From contig JAFGCT010000028.1 in assembly GCA_016932505.1 (NCBI GenBank), positions 2,404 through 66,403 on the forward strand: a stretch of DNA of 64,000 bases. The letters run 5' to 3'. The notes below the pieces were generated by a model. That model ran no database searches. It was not told where the DNA came from and saw only the letters and a list, made by a program, of their open reading frames with translations. A program made the position numbers and the translations under genes. The DNA is from Candidatus Peregrinibacteria bacterium. Its GTDB lineage: Bacteria; Patescibacteriota; Gracilibacteria; UM-FILTER-43-11. Within the stretch, counting starts at the first letter, position 1. Each line of letters starts with the position of its first letter. Below are positions 2,515-63,692 of this stretch, piece by piece.

Positions 2515-4785
2515 ATGAAAACAATCTTCAAAAAACTCACAAAAGGAATAATAATCAGTTTACTGCTGATATTTACACTGAATCTGACTTCGTTTCAGAT
2601 AGGTGGAAATAGCCAAGAAAATAGAATACTTACTACAAGTGTGAACGCTGATGAGATTACAGATGCGGATTTAGGGATTGGAGCTGAAACAACTGATTCA
2701 AATGCCAATGTAGTAGACCAATACTTAGCCGAGCCTGCAGGAGATACTGGCACTACAACCAACGCTACAACCAGCACTGAAGGAACTGGAAGTGGAGGCG
2801 AACCTGATCTAAGTAATGCAACGCCAGCCGCTAATGCAGAAGCAGAGCAACCAGGAGAACCTTTTGATATTGAGGAATTTATGAAGAGTATTCAGAAGGG
2901 GGCGACTTATATTCACAGACTTTTTGCTCCTTTGGTGAATTTTTTCTCATTTAATATTGGTAATTTCCTAAGTAATGACCATATTTTTGGTGGAGCTATG
3001 GGGCTTATGCTGAAAAAAATATGGATAGTCAGCAGAAATCTCGTAAATATCGCTTTCGTACTGATCCTTCTTTTTCTTGCATTAAAAGAAATATTTTGGA
3101 TTAAGGAAGAAGGCGGAACGGACCTGAAGAAAAGTTTACTTACTTTTGTACTACTTTTAATTGCAGTGAATTTTTCGTGGCTTGTTACAAAAGTTGTTTT
3201 AGATGCGGCTAACATTGCCACAAATGTCGTGTTCGCAATTCCTATGGGTGTAAGTGGTGCGGGTGCGGAACTATTGCCGAAAGATTGTGATGTTCTGGAT
3301 TGTCAAAATGACGACAGTGCTGAGACTCAGGCAGAGTGTGGTGCTGCAGATAAATATGTATTAAAAGGTTCATGTTACCCTAGTAGTATTTTTGCTGCTA
3401 ACACGGGTGACTGGAAAAGCCCCGAATACCAATATCTAGAAAAAGATCAATGTACCGATTATGATAAGAAGTATCAAGGAAATCCGGACAGTGCATTTAA
3501 TCAGGATGGTAGTGTAAATCCGAATGCGAGCGCCGATAATAAAGAGCTTCAAAATAAATCAACTTTCTGCTGGGAAACAATGGATTTTGCGAAATATGAC
3601 CAAAATACTTCCGTTATATATCTAACATACGGCATGGCTAGAATCCAGAATATTACCGGAGCAACTTCCAGAAGCAATGCTCCCGTTCAGGTTTCTATTG
3701 CAATATTGTTTTCACTGATTATTCAGGCTGCCTATACAATTGCTTTAATGGCGTTATTTATTGCCCTTGTTATTCGTATGGCCGTACTCTGGATATTTGT
3801 AGCATTTTCGCCATTTATGGTACTTATGTTATTTACTGATGTACTTGGTTCACTCGCGGAAAAAGCCAAAGGAACAGCGGATTTCTCCGGTTTCCTTAAA
3901 TGGGCTTTTGTTCCAGTTAAGGTAGCAGCTGTATTTACCATTTCATTCCTTATGGTTTCCGCTGGACAATCTATGGGAAGTACTGATGTAACAAATATAA
4001 ATACCTTTTCAGCAAGTGGAGCTAATACTACATTTAAAATATTTAATGTCGGTTCGTTATTTATGAATATGGGTGGAATTGAACAATTTATATGGCTCCT
4101 TATTACTCTTGTGGTTCTTTGGATAGGGGTATTTGCAGTTCTTGGAGATATGCCGATTATTAAATCTGTTACCGATAAGATGAAAGAATACGGTACTTCA
4201 ACTGCCGGACTTATTGCAAAAGCTCCATACTGGGCACCTATTATGCCTATGGTAGACCCAAGTACCGGTAAATTTAAATTTGGTTCTTATGCTAAGGAAT
4301 ATTCCGGACTTGATTTAAGAAAGGTATTAACAGAAGCTAAAGAAAAGGCAACTGGTGATAATTTGAAGAGTAAGGCGGAAAAGGTGACTGAACCAGTGCA
4401 AAAAGAAATTAATGATTTAGTTAAGACTGGAAATACCGAAAAAGCTTATTCTAAATTCCTTGAATCTATCGGCGGAGACAAATATTCAGTAAATAAAGAA
4501 GGTATTGAAAAACTTACTAAATCAATGGATAAGCTTGATGCAGATACAAGACGTAAGTTAATTGCTTTCCATAAAGATCAAATGAAGGGTATTGAAACGA
4601 AGAAACCTTCCACCGCTGATGTTCAGGCAGATGAAGCAGCCAGAATAGCTGAACGCGATAAGCAAAGTGGTTCAACACCTACAACGCCATCAGGAGGAAC
4701 AACTTCATCAGGAGGAACAACTTCATCAGGAGGAACAACTTCTACTGCCCAGGAAAATCCACCAGCAGATAATACCGGACAATAG
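2515..4785 (+). CDS. polytopic membrane protein, possible VirB6/TrbL-like channel component
   Basis: N-terminal signal/TM segment and at least 6 long hydrophobic segments. Cys-rich extracytoplasmic loop. Low-complexity C-terminus. Lies next to a T4CP-like ATPase. The family assignment is an inference from topology and context only. Confidence 0.7.
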   Translation: MKTIFKKLTKGIIISLLLIFTLNLTSFQIGGNSQENRILTTSVNADEITDADLGIGAETTDSNANVVDQYLAEPAGDTGTTTNATTSTEGTGSGGEPDLSNATPAANAEAEQPGEPFDIEEFMKSIQKGATYIHRLFAPLVNFFSFNIGNFLSNDHIFGGAMGLMLKKIWIVSRNLVNIAFVLILLFLALKEIFWIKEEGGTDLKKSLLTFVLLLIAVNFSWLVTKVVLDAANIATNVVFAIPMGVSGAGAELLPKDCDVLDCQNDDSAETQAECGAADKYVLKGSCYPSSIFAANTGDWKSPEYQYLEKDQCTDYDKKYQGNPDSAFNQDGSVNPNASADNKELQNKSTFCWETMDFAKYDQNTSVIYLTYGMARIQNITGATSRSNAPVQVSIAILFSLIIQAAYTIALMALFIALVIRMAVLWIFVAFSPFMVLMLFTDVLGSLAEKAKGTADFSGFLKWAFVPVKVAAVFTISFLMVSAGQSMGSTDVTNINTFSASGANTTFKIFNVGSLFMNMGGIEQFIWLLITLVVLWIGVFAVLGDMPIIKSVTDKMKEYGTSTAGLIAKAPYWAPIMPMVDPSTGKFKFGSYAKEYSGLDLRKVLTEAKEKATGDNLKSKAEKVTEPVQKEINDLVKTGNTEKAYSKFLESIGGDKYSVNKEGIEKLTKSMDKLDADTRRKLIAFHKDQMKGIETKKPSTADVQADEAARIAERDKQSGSTPTTPSGGTTSSGGTTSSGGTTSTAQENPPADNTGQ
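4690..4743 (+). repeat. 18-nt tandem repeat x3 inside the CDS (encodes SGGTTS x3)
   Basis: tcaggaggaacaacttca at 4690, 4708 and 4726 (the last copy ends in t). Confidence 0.9.
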
Positions 4786-11771: not shown

Positions 11772-12599
11772 ATGATTGGTATATTCGATTCAGGTTTTGG
11801 CGGGCTTACAGTAATGAAGGAATACTTAAAAAAGTATCCTGAGTTTGATTATATGTATTTAGGAGATCAGGCAAATATGCCTTATGGAAGTCATTCTAAA
11901 GAAAGGTTGAACAAATTAGTTGTTCAGAATGTTGATTTTTTGGTTAATAAAGGATGTAAACTCATTATTATTGCCTGTAACACCGCTTCAGCGGATGCAC
12001 TTAGGCATGTTCAGAATATATATAAAGGTAATCCTACTATACTTGGCGTTTTGGTTCCTGCGGTAGAGAATTCCTTAAAAGAAACAAGGTTTGGTAATAT
12101 TGGTGTTATTGGTACTCGCGGAACAATCAATAGCAATGCCTATAAACGAGAAATTGAGAAATATGAAAATGACTTATATAAACCCACTGACAAACGGGCT
12201 AGAGAATCTGTAAAACTATATCAGCAAGCTTGTCCGCTATTAGTGCCCTTAGTAGAAGAGGGATTAATTAAAGCAACGGTAACCCGAATGATTTTAAAGA
12301 ACTACCTTAGACCGCTTAAAAACGCTCACATAGATACTTTAATACTTGGATGTACTCACTATCCCCTACTTCAAAAAGAAATTACTAGAATAATGGGTAA
12401 AAACTGCAAGATTATTTCTTCAGCACAGGCGGCTACTTATGCCATAGGCAGTTACTTTGAAAATCACCCAGATGTTCTGAATTTAATTACAAGGAATGGA
12501 AAACGCACCTATTATACAACAGACTGCCCAGAGAGATTTGCAGATTTAGGAAAAAGGTTTTTAGGTGAAGTGATTGTAGGTGAAAAGGTGGAGATTTGA
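11772..12599 (+). CDS. murI: glutamate racemase
   Basis: IGIFDSGFGGLTV, IIACNTASA and LGCTHYP motifs, with both catalytic Cys contexts. Confidence 0.9.
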   Translation: MIGIFDSGFGGLTVMKEYLKKYPEFDYMYLGDQANMPYGSHSKERLNKLVVQNVDFLVNKGCKLIIIACNTASADALRHVQNIYKGNPTILGVLVPAVENSLKETRFGNIGVIGTRGTINSNAYKREIEKYENDLYKPTDKRARESVKLYQQACPLLVPLVEEGLIKATVTRMILKNYLRPLKNAHIDTLILGCTHYPLLQKEITRIMGKNCKIISSAQAATYAIGSYFENHPDVLNLITRNGKRTYYTTDCPERFADLGKRFLGEVIVGEKVEI

Positions 12600-12716
12600 G
12601 ATTTGTGATTTGTGATTTGTGATTTGAGACCTGCCTGCCGGTAGGCAAGGTTTGTGATTTGAGATTTGAGATTTGAGACCTGCCTGCCGGTAGGCAAGGT
12701 TTGTGATTTGAGATTT
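12593..12716. repeat. heptamer gatttg(t/a) array containing a 49-bp direct duplication, each copy carrying a GC-rich hairpin core
   Basis: gatttga/gatttgt units start at 12593. gagacctgcctgccggtaggcaaggtttgtgatttgagattt is present at 12626-12667 and 12675-12716. The cores cctgcctgccggtaggcaagg are at 12630-12650 and 12679-12699. Confidence 0.9.
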
Positions 12717-12741
12717 GTCATTTATAAAATAAATCAGTTTT

Positions 12742-16402: not shown

Positions 16403-16608
16403 CGAGATGACGAGATGACGAAATTACGAAATTACGATACAACACCCTTTGGAAATTTACAATTTCTAATTACTAATTTCTAATTAAATCCCAATTAAAC
16501 AATTACTGAATTTCCAATGTATTAATTTGGCATTGGACATTGGTCATTCATTAGAAATTAGAAATTGTAAATTAGAAATTATTCTCCTATACTCTGTACC
16601 GCATAATT
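16403..16608. repeat. divergent intergenic region composed almost entirely of short tandem/inverted repeat families
   Basis: cgagatga x2 and cgaaatta x2. ttacaatttctaattactaatttctaatt versus attagaaattagaaattgtaaattagaaatt (inverted). ttggcattggacattggtcatt is the reverse complement of the tgtccaa family seen at 7595-7615. Confidence 0.85.
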
Positions 16609-36516: not shown

Positions 36517-37537
36517 GGGTTTCTTTTGATGGGCTAATTGATGGGCTTATTGATGGACTTATTGATGTTACTTTCAATTGCCCTTCAATTGCCCTTCCAT
36601 CAGCCCCTCCATTAGTTATTACCTCCTTAATAATATAAACTTTATCTTTAGAACTGTTATAATAAGTTTTACTAATCATATCCGCAAGAATTCCCCCTAT
36701 GAACATAGCGAAACCTGCAAAGAACAAGAACATGGTAAGAACTGTAAAAGAGGTGTCAGATAAATCTATTTTACCAAAAATTTTCAAATACAAAGCCCAC
36801 ATTCCACTTGCCACACCTATAAACATCATTAGTATTCCTGCTGTACCAAGTAAATGAAGTGGACGATTTGCGAATTTTTTCCAAAACCAAACAGAAATCA
36901 TATCCAAAAAACCTTTTATTATACGGCTTGCGTTATATTTTGTCTTTCCATGAATTCTTGGATGATGAGTTACTTCTAACTCACCTGTTTTAAAACCTTT
37001 CATCTTTAAAATCGCAACAATAAAGCGATGCATTTCTCCAAATAAATCCACGGTATCAAAACATTCACGTCGATATGCTTTTAATGTACATCCTGAGTCA
37101 TGAATATCATCTTTTATAAGAATATCTCTTAAAAACTTAGCACGCTTTGAAACAAATCGTTTTAAAAAGGGGTCCTTTCTATCTTTTCTCCAACCTGAAA
37201 CTACGTCTAAATCATCCGCTTTCATTTTTACAAGTAGACGAGGGATGTCAGATGGGTCGTTCTGAAGATCTCCATCCATTGTTACGATAATCTTACCGAC
37301 GGATGCTTTAATTCCGGCATCCATTGCAGCTGTTTGACCGCAGTTTTTTCTAAAGCGAATTATTTTAACTGGATTTAATGTCTTTAATTGTTCAAGAGTT
37401 CCATCGTCCGAACCATCATCCACAAAAATAATCTCAAATGGCCTGTTGAACTGTTTACATACATCTAAAATACGCCTGTGAAGCTCTGCCACATTATCTT
37501 TTTCGTTGTAAACTGGGATTACTATTGAAAGATCCAT
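36455..37537 (-). CDS. polyprenyl-phosphate glycosyltransferase (GT2, GtrB/ArnC/DPM1-like) with repeat-encoded C-terminal extension
   Basis: LSIVIPVYNEKDNV...IIFVDDGSDDGT...DGDLQNDP, then two C-terminal TM helices. The last ~47 codons run through a 12-mer repeat array and overlap the cysQ start by 62 nt. Confidence 0.8.
   Translation of the reverse strand: MDLSIVIPVYNEKDNVAELHRRILDVCKQFNRPFEIIFVDDGSDDGTLEQLKTLNPVKIIRFRKNCGQTAAMDAGIKASVGKIIVTMDGDLQNDPSDIPRLLVKMKADDLDVVSGWRKDRKDPFLKRFVSKRAKFLRDILIKDDIHDSGCTLKAYRRECFDTVDLFGEMHRFIVAILKMKGFKTGELEVTHHPRIHGKTKYNASRIIKGFLDMISVWFWKKFANRPLHLLGTAGILMMFIGVASGMWALYLKIFGKIDLSDTSFTVLTMFLFFAGFAMFIGGILADMISKTYYNSSKDKVYIIKEVITNGGADGRAIEGQLKVTSISPSISPSISPSKETHAHSSHSTNQEGRERDTQSL
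36517..36612. repeat. 11-12-mer arrays (ttgatgggctaa-type x4, tcaattgccct x2) lying inside the GT2 ORF tail
   Basis: Read directly from the sequence. Translated on the minus strand they give SISPSISPSISPS. Confidence 0.85.
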
Positions 37538-40916: not shown

Positions 40917-40926
40917 ATTAAATTAT

Positions 40927-40989
40927 CGTTATGCGTTATGCGTTATGCGTTATGCGAAGTGCGCAGAACGCAAATCGCAAAGCGAAATA
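40927..40989. repeat. nine consecutive heptamers phase-locked on a leading CG
   Basis: cgttatg x4, then cgaagtg, cgcagaa, cgcaaat, cgcaaag, cgaaata. Confidence 0.85.
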
Positions 40990-40991
40990 AA

Positions 40992-41930
40992 TTATATCTT
41001 TTTAAGGAATTTTTGAAAGTCAGTTTTCACTATTCTATGATTCTGAGTACCTGCCCTGGATACCGCTTTTGACGCAATCCATGCGCCTATATTGGCGGAC
41101 TGTTCGATTGAATATCCGTTTACGATTCCATACATCAACCCAGAACGATATGCATCACCACAACCTGTTGGGTCAACAACGTTTTTAGTTTTGACTATCG
41201 GGACATCAACAACGGTAGCACCTCCACTTTTCCATATTTTTGAACCACTTTCACCGTATGTAATTATTAAATAATCAACATTAGAAAGTGCTTCAGGCAG
41301 CCCAAATCCTGTTTTTTCCTGAATCATATCCCACTCGTAATCATTACAGATTAAAATATAAGCATTTTTGATGAATGCTTTCATGTCTTTTGCAGAAAAA
41401 CCAGGAATCGCTTGGCCTGGATCTGCGATAAATTTGATTCCGTTTTTTCGGCATTCATCTGCATATTGAAGCATTGCACCTATATCGTTTGGAGCGATTA
41501 TTGCTAAATCACTTTGCGATGTGAGTTGTGCGATGTGCGAAATTTTAGTCTTACTCGCCTCACTCATAGCCCCCATATAGAATGAAGTGATTTGGTTATC
41601 ATCCATATCTGTCATTATTGTAGCATGAGCAGTGAGTTTGGTTTTGGACTTATAAAGATAATCACAATCAATTTTGTGCTTTTTTAAATGTTTTATATAA
41701 TCTCTAGCATCATCACCAATCGAACCTAAAAGAATTGGTTTTTCACCCATTAAGGCTAAGCTGTAAGCAATATTTCCCCCAGTTCCACCATAATTTATGG
41801 TCATTTTTTCAACAGTAAAAGCAACATTCAACTTGTGAACTTTTTCTGGCAAAATATGATTTGCAAAACGGTCATGAAAAACTGATATGCGGTCTATTGC
41901 TATCGAGCCTGTGACTAATAAATTTTTCAT
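40992..41930 (-). CDS. PfkB-family carbohydrate/nucleoside kinase (adenosine kinase suggested by context)
   Basis: The GGTGGN region and DPTGCGDAYRSG are the PfkB signatures. The gene lies upstream of ahcY. Confidence 0.8.
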   Translation of the reverse strand: MKNLLVTGSIAIDRISVFHDRFANHILPEKVHKLNVAFTVEKMTINYGGTGGNIAYSLALMGEKPILLGSIGDDARDYIKHLKKHKIDCDYLYKSKTKLTAHATIMTDMDDNQITSFYMGAMSEASKTKISHIAQLTSQSDLAIIAPNDIGAMLQYADECRKNGIKFIADPGQAIPGFSAKDMKAFIKNAYILICNDYEWDMIQEKTGFGLPEALSNVDYLIITYGESGSKIWKSGGATVVDVPIVKTKNVVDPTGCGDAYRSGLMYGIVNGYSIEQSANIGAWIASKAVSRAGTQNHRIVKTDFQKFLKKI

Positions 41931-41936
41931 AATTTT

Positions 41937-42028
41937 CGTATTGGGGATCGTATTGGGGATCGTATTGGGGATCGTATTGGGGTTAAGTCATTCCATTCGA
42001 GCGCCCATTCGAGCACCCATTCGATTTT
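41937..42028. repeat. two 12-mer arrays: cgtattggggat x3.8 and cattcgagc(g/a)cc x2-3
   Basis: Read directly from the sequence. The array runs up to the stop codon of the downstream epimerase gene. Confidence 0.9.
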
Positions 42029-42982
42029 CTATTCGACAGTATTTAAGTACCACTCCACGAACTTCTTCATTCCCTCTTCTGTTGTTACAGAAGGTTTATA
42101 ACCAAGTAGCTTTTCGGCCTTAGAAATATCTGCGTAAGTTATATCGACATCACCCGGTTGCATAGGAAGCTGTTCTATAATAGCTTTTTTTCCGAGTAGC
42201 TTTTCAATTAAGGCAATAAAATCGTTGAGTGAAGTTGTTTCACTATTCCCAAGATTTATAACTTCAAATGATAAGTTTTTTTCTAGTGAAGAAATTATCC
42301 CCTGAACAATATCGTCGACATATGTGTAATCACGCTCAGATGTTCCGTCACCATATTTAGGTAAAGGTTCGCCCTTATAAATTAAGTCTGTAAATTTATA
42401 TGGTGCCATGTCCGGGCGACCGCTAGGCCCGTAAACTGTAAAAAATCTCAAACATGTAATGGGAATATTATTTAAATGGTGATATGTATAACAAAGATTT
42501 TCACCAGCCTTTTTGGTAGCTGCGTAAAGAGAGATAGGTTCTTCAACAATATCGGTTTCAGAAAATGGAGTCTTACTTTGATTACCATAAACGGATGAAG
42601 ATGATGCGAATACAAAATTCTCAATTCCATGTTGCTTTGAAAGCTCAAGCAAATTTATAGTTCCACCAAGATTTACTTTTTCATAAAGAAGAGGATTTTT
42701 TATTCCATCGCGTACACTGGCACGTGCGGCTAAATGTATTATTTTATGCGGTTTTTCTTGAACAAATATTTTGTTCATAGCTTCAAAATCACAGATGTCT
42801 TCACGATACAATTTAAACCTTTCATTATCCAAAAAAGGTAGAAGATTTCTTTCTTTAATAGCCGTATCATAAAAATCATTGAGAATATCGATACAAACAA
42901 CATCGTAATCGGTACTATCTAGCAGGTATTTTATTACGTTTGACCCGATGAATCCGGCACCGCCGGTTACAAGGATTTTCAT
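42029..42982 (-). CDS. UDP-glucuronate 4-epimerase-like NAD-dependent epimerase
   Basis: VTGGAGFIGSN, YAATKKAGE, RFFTVYGPSGRPDMAPYKF. Overlaps ugd by 4 nt. Confidence 0.8.
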   Translation of the reverse strand: MKILVTGGAGFIGSNVIKYLLDSTDYDVVCIDILNDFYDTAIKERNLLPFLDNERFKLYREDICDFEAMNKIFVQEKPHKIIHLAARASVRDGIKNPLLYEKVNLGGTINLLELSKQHGIENFVFASSSSVYGNQSKTPFSETDIVEEPISLYAATKKAGENLCYTYHHLNNIPITCLRFFTVYGPSGRPDMAPYKFTDLIYKGEPLPKYGDGTSERDYTYVDDIVQGIISSLEKNLSFEVINLGNSETTSLNDFIALIEKLLGKKAIIEQLPMQPGDVDITYADISKAEKLLGYKPSVTTEEGMKKFVEWYLNTVE

Positions 42983-45709: not shown

Positions 45710-45823
45710 GATGTGTTTTTTTATTTTATGTGATTATTCTACTACAAAAAATTTTATATTACAAAATTACAAAATTAATTTGTGATTGGTTTTATTGTAG
45801 TATTAACAATCATCATATAAAAT

Positions 45824-45858
45824 AATCTTGTAATAACTAATCTTGTAATCTTGTAATA
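45824..45858. repeat. aatcttgtaat 11-mer units (x2.7) directly upstream of trmD
   Basis: The same unit, or its reverse complement attacaagatt, occurs at 59946-59956, 61055-61100 and 61216-61257. Confidence 0.85.
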
Positions 45859-46509
45859 ATGCAATTCCACATTCTCACCATCTTCCCCGAAATGTTTAAA
45901 GGCTTCCTAAACGAATCCATATTAAAGAAAGCTCAGGGCAAAGGTGTTGTTGATATTCAGATTCACGATATTCGCGAATATTCAAAGGACAAGCATAAAA
46001 AAACTGATGACACTCCTTATGGTGGTGGTGCGGGCATGGTGTTTACACCTCAACCGCTTTTCGACTGTATTGAGGACGTGAAGAAAATGGCGACAAAGGC
46101 TCCAGTGATATATTTAACTCCAGGAGGAAGGCGCTTAACGCAAGCTGGCGTAGAGCACTTGAACAAAAAATTTACTCAACTGATTCTTTTATGCGGACAC
46201 TATGAAGGAATAGACCAGAGAGTTATTGATGAATTGGTGGACATGGAAATTTCTATCGGCGATTACGTTTTAAGCGGTGGTGAAATACCGGCGATGGTTT
46301 TAGTGGATGCAGTTAGTAGACTTGTACCGGGTGCGCTTGGAAATGATGAATCCCATATGGAAGAATCATTCACTAAAAAGCTTGGACGCAAAAAAGAATA
46401 TCCTCATTACACAAAACCTGCCGACTTTAGAGGCTTTAAGGTGCCGGATGTTTTAATGGGTGGTAATCATGCGGAGATTGAAAGGTGGAGGAAGAATCAT
46501 TTGAGATGA
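45859..46509 (+). CDS. trmD: tRNA (guanine37-N1)-methyltransferase
   Basis: FHILTIFPEMF, PYGGGAGMV, LLCGHYEGIDQRV, SIGDYVLSGGE. Confidence 0.95.
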   Translation: MQFHILTIFPEMFKGFLNESILKKAQGKGVVDIQIHDIREYSKDKHKKTDDTPYGGGAGMVFTPQPLFDCIEDVKKMATKAPVIYLTPGGRRLTQAGVEHLNKKFTQLILLCGHYEGIDQRVIDELVDMEISIGDYVLSGGEIPAMVLVDAVSRLVPGALGNDESHMEESFTKKLGRKKEYPHYTKPADFRGFKVPDVLMGGNHAEIERWRKNHLR

Positions 46510-46573
46510 TTTAATTTGTGATTTAAAATTTGAGATTTGAGAATGAAATCAAAATTAAAAAATCACAAATCAC
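46508..46573. repeat. gatttg-family heptamers with inverted aaatcac arm
   Basis: tttgtgattt...tttgagatttgag ... aaatcacaaatcac. Confidence 0.75.
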
Positions 46574-46594
46574 TTTTGTATAAATAATTTACTC

Positions 46595-50317: not shown

Positions 50318-52189
50318 ATGCAAGACCCAAACCAACACCCACCTCAACACCCAAAATTCAAACCACCAAAAAGGAATAATAGTTTTATGTATGTCCTTAT
50401 TTTCGCTTTGATTCTTACAATTATTTATTACGCGACTGGGCCAAAAAATGTTAATGAAGATACGGCTCTTACCGAAATTCCGATTAGTCAATTGGTTCAG
50501 GAATACAGAGACGGACAGTATTCAGCTATTGAGGTTAAAAATAGTAAAATATACGCGACTAATAATGAGCAAAAAGAATTTTTAGCTTATCGTCCGGAAG
50601 GAGAAAGTATTAAAGACCTTGGACTAAATGAGCAGGGCAACCCAACACCCATTACAATTATAAGCACAGAGGCAAGCGCCTTTTGGCTTAATGTTCTTTC
50701 AAGCTGGTTACCTATAATTCTATTTATTGCGCTTATTATTTTTATGGCTAAACAGCTTGGAAAAGGGGCGAACAGCGCATTTTCATTTGGCAAATCTCAA
50801 GCAAAAGTCTATTCAAAAAATGGAAAACACAAAACAACTTTTAAAGATGTTGCAGGAATGGAAGAGTCTAAAGATGATTTAGTTGAAGTTGTGGACTTTT
50901 TAAAACACCCTAAAAAATACACTAAGATTGGAGCTAAAATTCCTCGAGGAGTATTACTCGTTGGAGCTCCTGGAACAGGTAAAACATTACTTGCTCGAGC
51001 TGTTGCCGGTGAGGCAGGTGTCCCCTTCTTCAGTATTTCCGGTTCTGAATTTGTGGAAATGTTTGTCGGTGTAGGTGCTAGTCGTGTAAGAGATTTATTC
51101 CAAAAGGCAAAGAAAAATGCGCCATGCATAATCTTTATAGATGAAATTGATGCGGTTGGTCGTCAGCGTGGTTTTGGAATGGGTGGCGGACACGACGAAA
51201 GAGAGCAGACGTTGAATCAGATCCTTACAGAAATGGATGGTTTTGAGAATGAAACAAATGTAATTGTAATGGCTGCAACCAATAGGCCAGATGTACTGGA
51301 TGCCGCTTTAATGCGACCAGGACGTTTTGACAGACGTGTAATTATTGATATGCCCAATCTTGTCGACCGTGAGGCAATTCTAAAAGTTCACGCACGTAAC
51401 AAACCACTAGATAAAAGTGTAGATTTAAAGAGTGTAGCTAAACAGACACCTGGGTTTTCCGGTGCAGATATTGAAAATCTTATTAACGAAGCAGCTATTC
51501 TGGCTGCAAAAAATAATAGGAATAAAATAATGCATTCTGATTTGGAGGCTTCTATTGAAAAAGTCGGGCTTGGTCCTGAAAAGAAATCACGCAGACTTTC
51601 CGATGAAGAAAAGAAAATCACCGCTTATCATGAGGTCGGTCACGCACTTGTGGGTAAATTACTACCTGGTTGTGACCCCGTACACAAGGTTTCTATTATC
51701 AGTAGAGGCATGGCTCTTGGTGTTACTTGGTTTTTACCGGAAGAAGATAAGCATCTAAAATCAGTTTCTAAATTCAAAGATGAATTATGCTCATTACTTG
51801 GAGGTTATATGTCCGAAAAACTTACCTTTGGTGAAGTAACCACAGGAGCGAGTAGCGACTTACAACGTGCAACCGAGATTGCAAGAAGCATGGTGATGGA
51901 TTATGGAATGAGTGAAGACCTTGGACCTGTAATTTTTGGTCAAAAATCAATGGCCAGATTCTTAGGTGCAGACCTTGGCTCAAAACCAAATTATAGTGAG
52001 GAAGTAGCAGCAAAAATTGATAATGCTGTTTCCAAAATTCTTACTGATGCTCAGGAAAAAACTGAAAACCTTCTTATTAAAAATAAAGCGCTTCTTAAAG
52101 AGATTGCGGAATCACTACTTAAGAAAGAGGTTTTGGATAAAAAAGAGTTTGATAGTTTTTTTCCTAAAGAAAAGACGAAGAAGAAATAA
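50318..52189 (+). CDS. ftsH: ATP-dependent zinc metalloprotease FtsH
   Basis: [16 protein letters not shown], the SRH region and the HEVGHAL zinc site. The N-terminus ([18 protein letters not shown]) is encoded by a cacc/caa-type repetitive stretch. Confidence 0.95.
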
Positions 52190-52229
52190 TTTGTGATTTG
52201 TGATTTGTGATTTGTGATTTGTGATTTGT
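52188..52229. repeat. pure direct heptamer array: aatttgt + gatttgt x5
   Basis: Read directly from the sequence. It starts at the ftsH stop codon. Confidence 0.95.
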
Positions 52230-52690: not shown

Positions 52691-52775
52691 GTAAGCAAAT
52701 TGATGAGCAAATTGATGAGCATATTGTACAATCGGCTCCTCAATCGGCTCTACAATCGGCTCTACAATATGAATC
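52691..52775. repeat. two 12-mer arrays: gcaaattgatga x2 and caatcggctc(t/c)(a/t) x3
   Basis: Read directly from the sequence. Confidence 0.85.
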
Positions 52776-54319: not shown

Positions 54320-54422
54320 AATTTGAAATTTGTGAATTGAGATTTGTGATTCTTTTTTGTTTATTGTATTTTTGTCATGTCCTATAAATAAATTCACAAA
54401 TCAAAAATCACAAATCAAAAAT
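54320..54422. repeat. inverted gatttgt-family arms
   Basis: aatttgaaatttgtgaattgagatttgtgattc (54320-54352) versus aaattcacaaatcaaaaatcacaaatcaaaaat (54389-54422). Confidence 0.85.
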
Positions 54423-54426
54423 AGTA

Positions 54427-54810
54427 ATGGGTTTTGGAACATTCGATGGTCTGCATCCAGGTCATATGTATTATTTAAGACAGCTTGATGCATTGGGTGA
54501 TGAGCTAATTGTTTTAATTGCGAGAGACAGAAATGTTAAAAAGACAAAAGGCAAACTACCGCAACACAATGAGAAAGAACGGTTGAGCGCAGTAAAAGAC
54601 CTTAAATTTGTTAACCGAGTTCTTATCGGGCATTCATCCGATTATTATCACTGGATACGCAAAATTCGTCCCGATATTATTGGTCTGGGATATGATCAAA
54701 TGACGAATTTGGATGGCCTTAAGAAAACTTTTCCTGATATTGAAATTGTAAGACTGGATCCGTATGAACCGGAAAAGTATAAATCTAGCTTATTGAGGGA
54801 TAAGGAATAG
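54427..54810 (+). CDS. cytidylyl/adenylyltransferase-family protein (RibL/FAD-synthase-like)
   Basis: GTFDGLHPGHMYYL, the (H/T)xGH nucleotidyltransferase motif. The N-terminus looks short by one beta-strand if the ATG at 54427 is the start. Confidence 0.7.
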   Translation: MGFGTFDGLHPGHMYYLRQLDALGDELIVLIARDRNVKKTKGKLPQHNEKERLSAVKDLKFVNRVLIGHSSDYYHWIRKIRPDIIGLGYDQMTNLDGLKKTFPDIEIVRLDPYEPEKYKSSLLRDKE

Positions 54811-55899: not shown

Positions 55900-55902
55900 G
55901 AT

Positions 55903-55995
55903 GGGATTATTAGAATTATTGAGATTATTGGGATGATTGAGATGTTTATAGCATTTCCCAATAATCATAATAATCCTAATAATCTCAATAATCAC
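55903..55995. repeat. inverted arrays of the gattattgN 9-mer (same family as 1994-2080)
   Basis: gggattattagaattattgagattattgggatgattgagatg ... cccaataatcataataatcctaataatctcaataatcac. Confidence 0.9.
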
Positions 55996-56005
55996 AACAA
56001 AATAA

Positions 56006-61051: not shown

Positions 61052-61262
61052 AAATTATTACAAGATTAATTATTACAAGATTAGTTATTACAAGATTATT
61101 TTATATTATGATTGGTGATACTACAATTGAAACCGATTATTTCCTTCCGAAGGCGCGGTGCCGGCACCGCGCCTTCGGAAGGTTTGTTTATTTGATGTAT
61201 AACCAATCACAAATAAATCTTGTAATCTACTAATAAGCGAAGTGTTAATCTTGTAATAATCC
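61052..61262. repeat. composite element: attacaagatt x3 arm, a central perfect 40-nt GC-rich palindrome, and an inverted aatcttgtaat x2 arm
   Basis: Left arm 61055-61100. Palindrome ccttccgaaggcgcggtgccggcaccgcgccttcggaagg at 61143-61182. Right-arm units at 61216-61226 and 61247-61257; the latter encodes the last codons and stop of aroD. Confidence 0.9.
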
Positions 61263-61952
61263 CCAAGCCTCTTTCAACTCCCCCACTGTTAATTGACCCG
61301 GTGCGGATGATTTGGATTTGGATATTGGCGCAAACATAATTGTACCACCAAGGGTAGGAGTAAGAATTCTGGAAAGGGCGCCTTTTTTACCCATAGCAAT
61401 GATTATATGCGGGATTTTTTCGGCTTGTAGATGCTTTGCCAATGAAATTGCCTGAATAGTATCTGCGTAAGTTTTTGCCATAACCGAAATCTTGACGATA
61501 CACGCCCCGGCGCGCAGGTCTGCGCCCTTTTTCTTCATTTCTTTAGCTTTTTTTAAAAGGACGGATAGTGAAGGTGTTTTTTTGAAGTTATGATATGAAA
61601 GAATGATTTTTGATTTTTGATTTGTGAATTGTGATTTTAAATCAGAAATCCCAAATCTCAAATCACAAATGTCCAAAGGTAAATCTATATATTCGGCTCC
61701 GTTCTTAGATGATTCAGTAAGTAATTTTAAGACTTCTTTATCACTTCCTTTAAAGCATCCCATTTCGTTAGGTTTTTTACATACACAAATTACCGGTAAG
61801 GGCTTGTTTTTAAGCAATTCAGCTATATCCAAATCCTTAATATAATCCAGCCAGATTTCCGCCATGTCGGCATGTTTTTTTGCCAAGACCATAGCCTTTT
61901 TTGCCTCTTTCATTGTTTTTGCCTGAATTGGAATACATAATTTAATTTTCAT
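61245..61952 (-). CDS. aroD: type I 3-dehydroquinate dehydratase
   Basis: LCIPI..., AEIWLDYI, ILSYHNFKKTP, KISVMAK (Schiff-base Lys context), IIAMGKKGALSRIL, SAPGQL. Confidence 0.85.
   Translation of the reverse strand: MKIKLCIPIQAKTMKEAKKAMVLAKKHADMAEIWLDYIKDLDIAELLKNKPLPVICVCKKPNEMGCFKGSDKEVLKLLTESSKNGAEYIDLPLDICDLRFGISDLKSQFTNQKSKIILSYHNFKKTPSLSVLLKKAKEMKKKGADLRAGACIVKISVMAKTYADTIQAISLAKHLQAEKIPHIIIAMGKKGALSRILTPTLGGTIMFAPISKSKSSAPGQLTVGELKEAWGLLQD
61606..61672. repeat. intragenic inverted heptamer array (gatttgt family) inside aroD
   Basis: gattttt gattttt gatttgt gaattgt gatttta | aatc agaaatc ccaaatc tcaaatc acaaatg. It is translated in frame as ...ICDLRFGISDLKSQFTNQKSK.... Confidence 0.85.
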
Positions 61953-62042
61953 TTATCATTTTTCAATTATCATTTAATGAGAACAATATTAATATTAAAT
62001 GTTAAATGACAATTATTAAATGACAAATGTGTTTTTATTCAC

Positions 62043-62071
62043 TTGACAAAATACCGATTATACGATACAAT
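62043..62071 (+). promoter_or_regulatory. near-consensus sigma70-like promoter
   Basis: ttgaca (62043-62048), a 17-nt spacer, then tacaat (62066-62071). Confidence 0.55.
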
Positions 62072-62287
62072 TCACATCCAAACATCACGTTTGGGTGCCT
62101 GTTATTTGGGCACTATTGATCATTTAAAACATTGGAAGTAAGGGAAATCTTTACAATATTCCGCTTAAGTAAGCCTGTTCTGATTTTTTACCTATGGTAA
62201 GAAAAACCGGAAACGGGCGCTTGTGAATATATAAATACTTCCCTACGCAATTACTAAGTTGATTGGCAATACCAAGTAAAATACCCC

Positions 62288-62340
62288 CCATTGACTTCCA
62301 ATTGACTTCCGTAGACCTAGTCAATAGGACGTCAATCGGA
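62288..62340. repeat. inverted arrays of the attgacttcc / gtcaat unit (reverse complement of the 11701-11722 family)
   Basis: ccattgacttccaattgacttcc-gtagacc-tagtcaataggacgtcaatcgg. Confidence 0.85.
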
Positions 62341-62451
62341 AATTTATAGGGAAAAAAGTATCTTATTTAGTATTGCCATCAACAAATAAACAAACCTGCT
62401 TGCGTGCAAGTGGGAACTGACCCGGAAACGGGAAAGGAAAGGAATTTAGTC

Positions 62452-63390
62452 ATGAAAAAATGTAACAACAAAACAGGAGGAGGAGCCATGTTTACGAAAC
62501 TCTCAACCGCGGTCTTTTTGGCCGCAATGTTCTTCGCGTTCAGCAACTCTGCCAGCGCCGCCTACTGCGACCGCTACGAAGGAGGCGAGGCAGACAAATG
62601 CGGTAGCGGAATGTCGCAAGCCAAAGCCCTCCCGGGCTACGGCGCTATGACCTCAGCCACAGCCAAAGCCCCCTGCGAAGCGGCGAGAGCCAACGCGCTG
62701 GACCAATGTACCATGAAAGCCGGCGGGTCTGATGCCTTTATTGGCGGCTGCAAGAAAACCGTCAAAGCCTACAAGTGCCCCGATGGCGGACCTGTTACAG
62801 TTTCCGCAGTCTGTGGAAACGGGAAGTGCGAAAAGGGCGAGACCAAGAAGAATTGCCCGAAAGACTGCGGTTCGACACCTCCCCCAGTGGTGAGGAAGGG
62901 CAAAAAGTGCGGAAACGGGGTATGTGACGCAAGCGAGGATTTCGCCACCTGCCCGGAGGACTGCCACTGCGGTGACGGCACGTGCGACCCCACGATCGAC
63001 GAAACGTTCTGCACCTGTGCAGACGACTGCAAAGATTGTCCCGAAGGCTGTGAGGGGGCCGAGCCCCCGCCGTGCAGCGACTGCATGGAAGAAGCATTGA
63101 AGAAGTTCTGGGAAGAACACGTTCAGTGCCAGGACAGCACGAGTACCTATCATACGGTTCTCAAGACCATGGGATGCGAGGGCTTCTTCAAAGCCAACAA
63201 GCTGACTTTCTACTCACCCCCGAAAGTCGATATGGAAGCCATCGCCAAAGCAAGTGCCGGCAACGGCTCCATCCCCAGATGGTTCGTCATCTTCGTCACA
63301 GTCGCTCTTTCCCTCAGCTTCCTCTGCCTGCTCATCCTCGTCTTCCGTAAAAAGAAGAACCCGAACACCACCGGCGGTAGCAACCGGTAG
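62452..63390 (+). CDS. GC-rich gene: secreted Cys-rich repeat protein with C-terminal TM anchor (start 62452 or 62488)
   Basis: RBS-like aaggaaagga / ggaggagg upstream of the two ATGs. Signal peptide FTKLSTAVFLAAMFFAFSNSASA. Three CG(N/D)GxC...C(P)xDC modules. C-terminal WFVIFVTVALSLSFLCLLILVF-RKKK. Hand GC count is 37/60 (62521-62580) against 17/60 (62101-62160). Confidence 0.7.
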   Translation: MKKCNNKTGGGAMFTKLSTAVFLAAMFFAFSNSASAAYCDRYEGGEADKCGSGMSQAKALPGYGAMTSATAKAPCEAARANALDQCTMKAGGSDAFIGGCKKTVKAYKCPDGGPVTVSAVCGNGKCEKGETKKNCPKDCGSTPPPVVRKGKKCGNGVCDASEDFATCPEDCHCGDGTCDPTIDETFCTCADDCKDCPEGCEGAEPPPCSDCMEEALKKFWEEHVQCQDSTSTYHTVLKTMGCEGFFKANKLTFYSPPKVDMEAIAKASAGNGSIPRWFVIFVTVALSLSFLCLLILVFRKKKNPNTTGGSNR

Positions 63391-63530: not shown

Positions 63531-63692
63531 GCGATTAACGATTAACGATTTACGATTTACGTTGTACGGGGGGGGTTGTGATGGGTGGATTGGAATTACA
63601 TCAAATACACATTTATCAGTAGAGACGCGATTAATCGTGTCTCTACGGTATTAAATCGTTAATCGTACAACGTTAATCGTAAATCGTATAAC
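63531..63692. repeat. composite element: CG-anchored heptamer arm, a central hairpin, and an inverted arm
   Basis: gcgattaacgattaacgatttacgatttacgttgtacg (63531-63568). gtagagac-gcgattaatcgt-gtctctac (63619-63646). attaaatcgttaatcgtacaacgttaatcgtaaatcgtataac (63651-63692). Confidence 0.9.

Follow-up and report, generated by a model that had tools for sequence, protein, structure and literature searches.

The aroD gene of a Candidatus Peregrinibacteria contig, located in the 64-kb stretch of DNA analysed here (hereafter the window, taken at its full length of 64,000 nt), carries an array of heptanucleotide repeats that is arranged as an imperfect palindrome and read in frame in place of an outer helix of the enzyme. 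This array is probably a tolerated, translated passenger repeat, which slippage and template switching create and keep renewing. What the orthologues conserve is the presence of a period-7 array at this permissive site, and neither a peptide nor a structure, since no covariation was detected, both the repeat unit and the encoded peptide vary, and the site remains constant. What is new is the lineage-wide fixation of a non-triplet array at one site of a conserved enzyme, the turnover of its unit between lineages, and a link to a mini-hairpin found across phyla.

The gene (61245..61952, minus strand) is an intact open reading frame (ORF) coding for AroD, a type I 3-dehydroquinate dehydratase of 235 aa. 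A Pfam scan aligned residues 6-229 with positions 1-229 of the 230-position model PF01487 (DHquinase_I; E 3.6e-46) and gave a single other match, Phage-MuB_C, below threshold. Sequence comparison with the Protein Data Bank (PDB) returned Arabidopsis DHQ-SDH (2gpt) and Salmonella AroD (3m7w) as the best solved structures, and the AlphaFold2 model, built on 99 homologues (mean predicted local distance difference test score, pLDDT, of 93.7), was recognized by Foldseek as a (beta/alpha)8 barrel, with template modelling (TM) scores of 0.83-0.86 to 2o7q, 3m7w, 1qfe and 2yr1. The homologues belong to Patescibacteria, chiefly metagenome-assembled genomes (MAGs) of Peregrinibacteria and Peribacteria, and H121, K154, R195 and Q220 are invariant across all 99. 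On alignment, the codon of Lys154 (61491..61493, minus strand) matches the Schiff-base Lys170 of Salmonella AroD and that of His121 (61590..61592, minus strand) the catalytic, general-base His143 in Salmonella numbering. Because of the full-length Pfam match, the structural superposition and the invariant catalytic residues, aroD looks functional; to judge by its intact ORF and conserved catalytic residues, the gene would be a working one. The Logan assembly of run SRR13394437, which may share its sample with the window, is identical to window positions 61153-62952 over 1800 nt, so the aroD sequence is not the peculiarity of one assembler.

Inside aroD, two arms of 32 nt each (61606-61637 and 61639-61670), separated by 1 nt, are 81% complementary, and Tandem Repeats Finder resolved them into two period-7 arrays (61604-61638, 5.0 copies; 61639-61670, 4.6 copies). 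In the mRNA, the 5' arm (61639..61670, minus strand) reads ATTTGTG ATTTGAG ATTTGGG ATTTCTG ATTT, i.e., GATTTnn units coding for ICDLRFGISD(L), and the 3' arm (61606..61637, minus strand) reads AAATCAC AATTCAC AAATCAA AAATCAA AAAT, i.e., the inverse units, coding for KSQFTNQKSK and passing straight into the codons of strand beta5 (IILSYH). Some 4.5 GATTTnn units are thus followed by their inverse, which makes up the imperfect palindrome. The repeat-coded peptide ICDLRFGISDLKSQFTNQKSK (residues 95-115; 61608..61670, minus strand) spans 63 nt, that is, nine heptamers or 21 codons (ATTTGTG ATTTGAG ATTTGGG ATTTCTG ATTTAAA ATCACAA TTCACAA ATCAAAA ATCAAAA on the coding strand), and falls into three 7-residue periods (ICDLRFG / ISDLKSQ / FTNQKSK). 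The inverted heptamer array that an earlier note on this DNA had reported is beyond anything produced by 200 first-order Markov simulations of aroD, with 26 of 32 arm positions complementary against a simulated maximum of 22 and a lag-7 self-identity of 0.86 against a maximum of 0.68. The predicted folding of the hairpin is less exceptional (sense strand, -16.6 kcal/mol, z -2.1; antisense strand, -17.4 kcal/mol, z -2.7), because shuffles of such simple sequence fold too. Inspection of the flanks revealed neither a target-site duplication nor terminal inverted repeats around the hairpin, and no conserved multi-copy element of defined length was found in the window, where just the 7-nt unit family recurs. 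The sense strand of the array also contains a promoter-like TTGAGA-16-TAAAAT (61634-61661, minus strand), a consensus match only.

The repeat is of the type found in the spacers of this genome, as had been proposed. ATTTGnG units akin to those of aroD, together with nAAATC units, occur at 12591-12723, 46514-46542, 52189-52229 and 54323-54422, and the best match in the window is an intergenic hairpin (46508-46578) with which the aroD hairpin is colinear and identical at 49 of 70 positions, in low-complexity sequence. This intergenic 7-mer hairpin (46510..46575) shares both the unit family and the architecture of the aroD hairpin. Inverted ATTTGTG and AAATCA arrays fill another spacer (54320..54426), the right arm ending 4 nt before the start codon at 54427, and a third one (12591..12723, plus strand) combines ATTTGAG/ATTTGTG arrays with two GC-rich hairpin cores, GACCTGCCTGCCGGTAGGCAAGGT, discussed below. 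Apart from that of aroD, all strong period-7 arrays of the window are intergenic; the sole further coding case, in a PfkB kinase gene, is weak.

Within the enzyme, the array takes the place of a native segment and adds little to it, as the earlier note had proposed from a comparison with E. coli AroD. In the AlphaFold2 model, the repeat-coded segment forms short helices (93-96 and 102-109; pLDDT 68-78) where other AroDs have helix alpha4. The beta4-beta5 segment is three residues longer than in Arabidopsis DHQ (2gpt), aligns with Salmonella AroD (3m7w) with few short gaps and no appreciable gain in length, and counts 24 residues as against 22 in the non-repetitive segment ('MPEKLSKKIVQQARKKKCK') of deeper-branching orthologues. 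The site appears permissive because the peptides found there range from putatively helical to proline-rich and because the pLDDT reaches only 68-78.

The comparison of orthologues relied on 46 loci (designated L), fetched from GTDB genomes, JGI metagenomes and contigs coding for the closest proteins. The beta4-beta5 segment makes up about 10% of the gene, and lag 7 in this segment is the strongest short-period signal of the gene in 22 of 32 distinct orthologous aroD genes, and one further orthologue bears an 8-mer array there. This signal scores 0.68-0.93 in the 22 genes, and the scores of array-free orthologues and outgroup genes (Firmicutes and others) are 0.43-0.61. The units differ between lineages: CACGTCG in four copies (L046), CCAACTC (L010), CACCAGG (L018), GGATTCA (L021, L027), GGAATCA with its inverse (L004), TTCGATT (L020, L038), AAATTAA (L017), the octamer CACTACAG in 4.5 copies (L002), and ATTTGnG with its inverse (the window and L039-L045). 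The encoded peptides are not conserved and extend from putatively helical ones to PVTRHQPPGT and NSKLPTPNSK. The deeper-branching L006, L030-L032 and L022/L023 have a non-repetitive helix of the MPEKLSKKIVQQARKKKCK type, and solved structures are likewise non-repetitive; L019, L024, L026 and L028 retain such a helix and carry an array just ahead of beta5. All 32 orthologues are in frame.

Every member of the clade of the window has an array at this site, and an empty site was found in none. In a neighbour-joining (NJ) tree, the members of this clade with the ICDLRF-type array form a paraphyletic set, among which others with quite different arrays are nested, which argues for repeated replacement or remodelling of the array. 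The left arm of L039 has four units that all read ATTTCAG, and their pairing with the right arm is gone, and such uniform units are, on sequence grounds, the mark of homogenization by slippage or conversion. No change in repeat number was seen inside ten clusters of 90% identity (28 sequences), where the segment shows point differences only and the differences in overall length stem from start-codon calls. Covariation was not detected in five close orthologues, since none of the 20 predicted hairpin pairs is compensatory and the covariation term is unfavourable (+0.68); pairing among these orthologues comes from constant GATTT/AAATC cores. Likewise, an Rfam search at a permissive threshold around aroD and the 12.6-kb arrays gave no score near any gathering score.

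Several individual loci show further variation on this pattern. In L002, the octamer CACTACAG occurs 4.5 times in aroD (3283-3319) and five times directly before the GTG start of ychF (3714-3753), in direct orientation and about 395 nt apart, and recombination between these copies would remove the 3' half of aroD. L001 has, upstream of aroD, an array inverse to the one in aroD. The variable segment of aroD in L033 consists of two copies of a GC-rich hairpin unit of 39 nt (PLVIPHTDAESHP), present once in L009; this duplication is a recent in-frame expansion at the array site. Finally, L005 (P0045) has an insertion of 14 residues (GSRHVVTEGVGNRL) in another loop, after residue 218 in window numbering and just ahead of the conserved GQLT motif.

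The second feature is a GC-rich, in-frame insertion of 18 nt, CTGCGCGCCGGGGCGTGT (61500..61517, minus strand), coding for LRAGAC (residues 146-151) in a genome of low GC content (34.7% in the window). Codon-level comparison with 30 orthologues placed it after an Asp codon and before the Ile that opens the IVK strand, between helix alpha5 and strand beta6, and it is equally readable as CCTGCGCGCCGGGGCGTG (61501-61518) set into native GA^TATC. Only two of the 99 AroD homologues carry it. In the AlphaFold2 model, its residues lengthen alpha5 and the loop that follows, with a pLDDT of about 78. The earlier note had described a GC-rich mini-palindrome encoding GADLRAGAC (residues 143-151, placed at 61500-61526 in the present analysis) and a likely insertion of about six residues before the strand of the catalytic lysine. 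The insertion holds, at exactly 18 nt and absent from 97 of 99 homologues; the palindrome is weak, as its stem of 6-7 bp is made in part from the native Gly-Ala-Asp codons and is no more stable than those of shuffled sequences (z +0.66 and -0.36). On the antisense strand, the GC stem followed by CTTTTTCTTC scores as terminator-like (61509-61526, plus strand; a consensus match only).

The 18 nt are base-identical in the window and in L038 (P0015, from another sample), whose aroD genes are 62.5% identical in DNA; the longest exact match between the two genes is 23 nt and spans the insertion, and the next longest is 13 nt. As the NJ tree puts L038 in a different clade, vertical inheritance of the identical 18 nt with loss everywhere else is unlikely, and the simplest reading of the sequences would be a recent shared origin through transfer or targeted insertion. 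A source was not found in the window, the fetched loci, genome contigs or viral contigs. The window holds no second copy at up to three mismatches, and L038 is the only other carrier among the fetched aroD loci. Scans of genome contigs returned 77 matches, about the chance number; these belong to unrelated taxa, and the GC content of the DNA around them is always high (43-74%, median 64%), and the single match in viral contigs lies in a contig of 67% GC.

A possible relative of this insertion was recognized through L003, in which aroD carries a GC-rich hairpin in frame at the alpha4 site, with short arrays on both flanks (L003 2541-2564). Its 24-nt core, GACCTGCCTGCnGGTAGGCAAGGT, also occurs twice in the intergenic arrays of the window mentioned above (12628-12651 and 12677-12700). 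In a scan of one genome per species, this core was found exactly in 88 stretches, where about 0.02 would be expected, and its carriers include Patescibacteria of many classes, Bacteroidota, Ignavibacteria, Elusimicrobiota, Omnitrophota, Gammaproteobacteria, Planctomycetes and Bdellovibrionales, some MAGs holding several copies. Variants of the core were found as well. By eye, about a quarter of the copies lie inside heptamer arrays, where the flanks place the core between GA and TT of a GATTnnn unit, in such a way that its 21 nt (CCTGCCTGCCGGTAGGCAAGG) preserve the 7-nt phase. Of 82 copies, 31 are in frame in long ORFs, read as DLPAGRQG, TLPTGRQV or NLAYRQAGL; Pfam confirmed triosephosphate isomerase (TIM), Dus, aldehyde dehydrogenase, Fmt and GltX among the core-bearing ORFs, LeuRS and PheT were recognized by eye, and the insertion in aldehyde dehydrogenase occupies one shared site in four Chitinophagaceae MAGs. 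No Rfam family matches the core, and neither its sequence nor its peptides were found in the searchable literature. A phage origin can be set aside, as only 3 matches were found among 2.9 million viral contigs.

In the window, the 13-nt motif ACCTGCNNGCCGG, with one mismatch allowed, has three matches where 0.12 are expected: the two cores and the aroD insertion. The 3' arm of the latter has diverged from the core family and its hairpin has a z of about 0. By its sequence, the LRAGAC insertion probably belongs, in diverged form, to a family of GC mini-hairpins of about 21 nt (CCTGCCTGCCGGnAGGCAGG) that lie between GA and T(T). A broader proposal, which we put forward tentatively and consider rather doubtful, is that both features of aroD locally represent a class of tiny insertion elements, so far undescribed, that crosses phyla and spreads by a site-directed mechanism, with the 18 nt of the window and of L038 as two targeted insertions.

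The following scenario could account for the array as a translated passenger repeat. In an ancestor, a period-7 array would have arisen in, or been copied into, the Lys/Ser/Gln-rich end of alpha4, before beta5. Replication slippage and homogenization would then have altered the unit in each lineage, and fold-back template switching would have added inverse copies, yielding the palindrome with 32-nt arms seen in the window, while GC-rich hairpin cores may have joined in several lineages. Selection would have purged only those variants that broke the frame, three units of 7 nt amounting to seven codons. As an outer barrel helix far from His121 and Lys154, alpha4 would presumably tolerate almost any linker of 15-30 residues, and the native helix may have been overwritten step by step. 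The 18-nt insertion would be a separate and more recent event in the alpha5-beta6 loop. By TIM-barrel geometry, this loop should lie at the bottom of the barrel, with the active site at the other end, where six additional residues are expected to do little harm. In the AlphaFold2 model, both sites are distant from the catalytic residues.

Several considerations weigh against this scenario. That a single ancestral array drifted to units as unlike as CACGTCG and ATTTGTG is inferred, and repeated independent insertions or copying from array to array give the same picture, L002, L001 and L003 favouring copying. The tree from which clades and paraphyly were read is a crude neighbour-joining tree rooted at its midpoint. 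Translation and AroD activity are deduced from the intact ORF and the conserved catalytic residues, and peptides spanning the AroD stretches ICDLRFGISDLK or GADLRAGACIVK would attest translation. The connection between LRAGAC and the core family is made by a 13-nt motif and a weak hairpin. Lastly, the scenario does not account for the identical 18 nt at one site in two distant orthologues.

The main rival, which does not fully exclude a translated passenger repeat, is that mobile elements, similar to MITEs (miniature transposable elements with inverted repeats) or to Rickettsia palindromic elements (RPEs), moved the hairpin and the 18-nt patch into aroD independently in different lineages. The aroD unit family recurs at five loci of the window, and an identical GC core is shared by its intergenic arrays and the aroD of L003; this core is found far beyond expectation in many phyla, frequently in frame, and within arrays the flanks can be read as placing it between GA and TT of a heptamer unit. 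The identical 18 nt at one site of two orthologues of 62% identity point in the same direction. Nevertheless, we regard this rival as unlikely. The aroD hairpin is not bordered by terminal inverted repeats or a target-site duplication and does not correspond to a conserved full-length element, no transposase was identified, and the site is constant while unit sequences are specific to lineages. The homogenization observed in L039 is a local process, and the 18-mer has no second copy in the window, its matches in the collection scans being chance matches in GC-rich DNA.

An RNA or DNA structure under selection, such as an RNase III site, a translational pause between the two half-barrels, a promoter or leader internal to the gene, or a terminator on the antisense strand, would be consistent with the hairpins predicted in several orthologues (z down to -6.6 in L045), with the promoter-like sequence in the array, with the terminator-like GC patch and CTTTTTCTTC on the antisense strand, and with the functions proposed for hairpin-forming repeats of cyanobacteria (PMC2670836). 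Yet none of the 20 pairs is compensatory, L039 lost its pairing through homogenization, many orthologues (L010, L018, L046, L002) have a direct array with no inverse partner, Rfam returned no match, and AT-rich arrays should contain consensus matches by chance, all of which makes selection on structure very improbable. Even less credible is a contingency locus in which slippage by a single unit switches aroD on and off. A unit of 7 nt is not a multiple of 3, some orthologues (L046, L039, L002) have perfect arrays of four copies, and heptanucleotide repeats are described as prone to slippage (Mrazek 2007, as cited in PMC4679880). However, the units of the window are imperfect, with about 4.5 copies per arm, no orthologue is out of frame, segment length is constant in each of the ten clusters, and aroD is a biosynthetic gene, unlike the surface genes that usually undergo phase variation. 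Low-complexity palindromes are prone to misassembly, but we give almost no credence to a misassembled repeat or a decaying gene, considering the identical second assembly, the related arrays that contigs from many other samples carry at this site, the intact ORF and the conserved catalytic residues.

Translated palindromic repeats have precedents. RPEs reportedly reside in frame in protein-coding genes, as Ogata and colleagues are said to have described in 2000. For palindromic repeats that have entered housekeeping genes in frame, they are the classic example (PMC10969869). Like them, the aroD array is palindromic DNA of intergenic type, translated within a conserved housekeeping enzyme of a small, reduced genome, at the surface of a protein whose fold and function are predicted to be kept. 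RPEs, however, are conserved elements of about 100-150 bp that form defined families with a conserved peptide and add length to many different genes, whereas the aroD array is 63 nt of 7-nt units that encodes no conserved peptide, replaces a helix, and occupies one fixed site of one gene across the lineage with a unit that changes between lineages. Thus, the aroD case works like an RPE yet fails the definition of one, because there is no conserved element and the segment is replaced instead of added. The impression that in-frame repeats of this kind are unusual stands, but they are not unprecedented in view of RPEs and of heptanucleotide repeats.

The short tandemly repeated repetitive (STRR) sequences of cyanobacteria are tandem 7-bp intergenic repeats that form hairpins and for which roles in transcript stability or translational coupling have been proposed (PMC2670836). 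The spacers of the window, with tandem 7-bp units able to form hairpins, fit with this STRR/heptamer class, although STRRs are intergenic, occur in filamentous cyanobacteria and have few fixed units, while here the host belongs to the candidate phyla radiation (CPR), units differ by locus, and one pair of arrays is translated inside an enzyme. More generally, heptanucleotides are cited as the commonest class of long simple sequence repeats (SSRs) in prokaryotes, perhaps through slippage of DNA polymerase (Mrazek 2007, cited in PMC4679880), and in Beggiatoaceae, cyanobacteria and Bacteroidetes, TAACTGA arrays are located just upstream of start codons (PMC4679880). The period of 7, arrays directly before start codons and 7-residue, heptad-like repeats on translation are common to both, and the distribution of these repeats across phyla suggests horizontal spread; nearly all of them, however, are intergenic direct repeats of one unit, non-triplet units being rare in coding DNA. 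A period-7 array that persists throughout a lineage at a single site of a conserved enzyme was not found described in the searchable literature, nor did the literature search yield a paper on Peregrinibacteria or Peribacteria combined with such repeats. Palindromic amphipathic repeat coding elements (PARCELs; PMC2996958) are likewise palindromic coding repeats, with dyad-symmetric coding DNA, amphipathic repeat peptides and horizontal spread. They are set apart by their description as 25-residue motifs in long tandem tracts of ORFs of surface or unknown function, and not of a housekeeping enzyme. Repetitive extragenic palindromes (REPs) and the bacterial interspersed mosaic elements (BIMEs) of enterobacteria are short, GC-rich imperfect palindromes at gene ends; REPs lie outside genes, are specific to a species and have a link to RAYT transposases. 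The GC core of 21-24 nt and the terminator-like hairpins of the window resemble REPs and BIMEs; unlike REPs, the core is identical across phyla, lies often in ORFs and has no known transposase.

Beyond the loci related to the aroD array, many spacers of the window fold into long imperfect hairpins, each arm being a tandem array. Period 7 prevails among the periods represented (7, 8, 9, 12 and 15), and the unit is particular to each spacer. Such hairpin arrays consist of 9-mers at 1985-2087 and 55900-56005, of 7-mers at 16403-16608 and 40917-40991, and of 12-mers at 41931-42028 and 52691-52775; further ones lie at 45710-45858 and 63532-63688. aroD itself is bordered on both sides: inverted heptamer arrays (ATTTATC-type units and their inverse) extend over its start codon in the 5' leader (61945..62030), where the spacer hairpin covers 61953-62030, and the spacer between aroD and ychF (61052..61244) has three copies of a 15-mer adjoining the ychF start, with their inverse partner close to the stop codon of aroD. 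The apex of this spacer is a terminator-like hairpin of 18 bp, rich in GC (61143-61182). The A/C-rich arm of a spacer often stops a few bases upstream of a start codon, where a Shine-Dalgarno sequence is not evident. A role of the STRR-like spacer arrays in Shine-Dalgarno-independent initiation or in transcript processing is conceivable.

A few repeats or patches in other genes were also noted. The weak period-7 array of the PfkB/adenosine kinase gene (40992-41930, minus strand) has 3.7 copies of a TGCGATG-type unit, in frame, at 41515-41540. It was rejected as an insertion, as KISHIAQLTSQS aligns without gaps to M. tuberculosis AdoK and is at most a weakly repetitive stretch of the same length. 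A GC-rich patch at 42410-42432 in a gene for a NAD-dependent epimerase, coding for GPSGRPD, was likewise rejected and taken as native; it lies in VYGPSGRPDMAP, a putative conserved epimerase motif. Three copies of an 18-mer (CATCAGGAGGAACAACTT) occur near the 3' end of a 756-aa ORF with no Pfam match (4688-4742), and 3.5 copies of a 12-mer with 2.3 copies of an 11-mer towards the 3' end of a gene for a family 2 glycosyltransferase (36526-36597). Finally, a 328-aa ORF with no Pfam match (62404-63390) is Cys-rich and of 50-67% GC in this genome of 35% GC. Inspection by eye suggests a putative N-terminal signal or transmembrane segment and a C-terminal transmembrane segment, and this may be a surface protein of foreign origin or of unusual composition; exported proteins rich in Cys have been reported in Peribacteria (PMC4736985).

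The aroD array illustrates how repeat DNA of the kind found in spacers can become protein, a hairpin of 7-nt microsatellites having apparently overwritten an outer helix of a TIM barrel and gone on changing throughout a CPR lineage, with the gene left undestroyed. This offers a natural experiment on the dispensability of the outer shell of (beta/alpha)8 barrels, and the array provides a marker for typing strains and lineages of uncultured Peregrinibacteria. Caution is also warranted in annotation and homology modelling, as repeat-derived peptides such as ICDLRFGISD, KSEIRNPKS and DLPAGRQG can occur inside real enzymes. Should the tentative class of tiny elements prove real, it would consist of GC hairpins of about 21 nt (CCTGCCTGCCGGnAGGCAGG and variants) set between GA and T(T), usually in GATTnnn arrays, whose lengths of 21 nt and 3 x 7 nt both preserve the reading frame. 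Such elements would spread both inside a genome and from one genome to another, in Patescibacteria, Bacteroidota, Ignavibacteria, Gammaproteobacteria and others, and would be routinely translated in housekeeping enzymes such as AroD, TIM, Dus, Fmt, GltX, LeuRS and aldehyde dehydrogenase. A hairpin of 21-24 nt that does not vary from phylum to phylum and that many housekeeping genes carry in frame could indicate a new mechanism of insertion.

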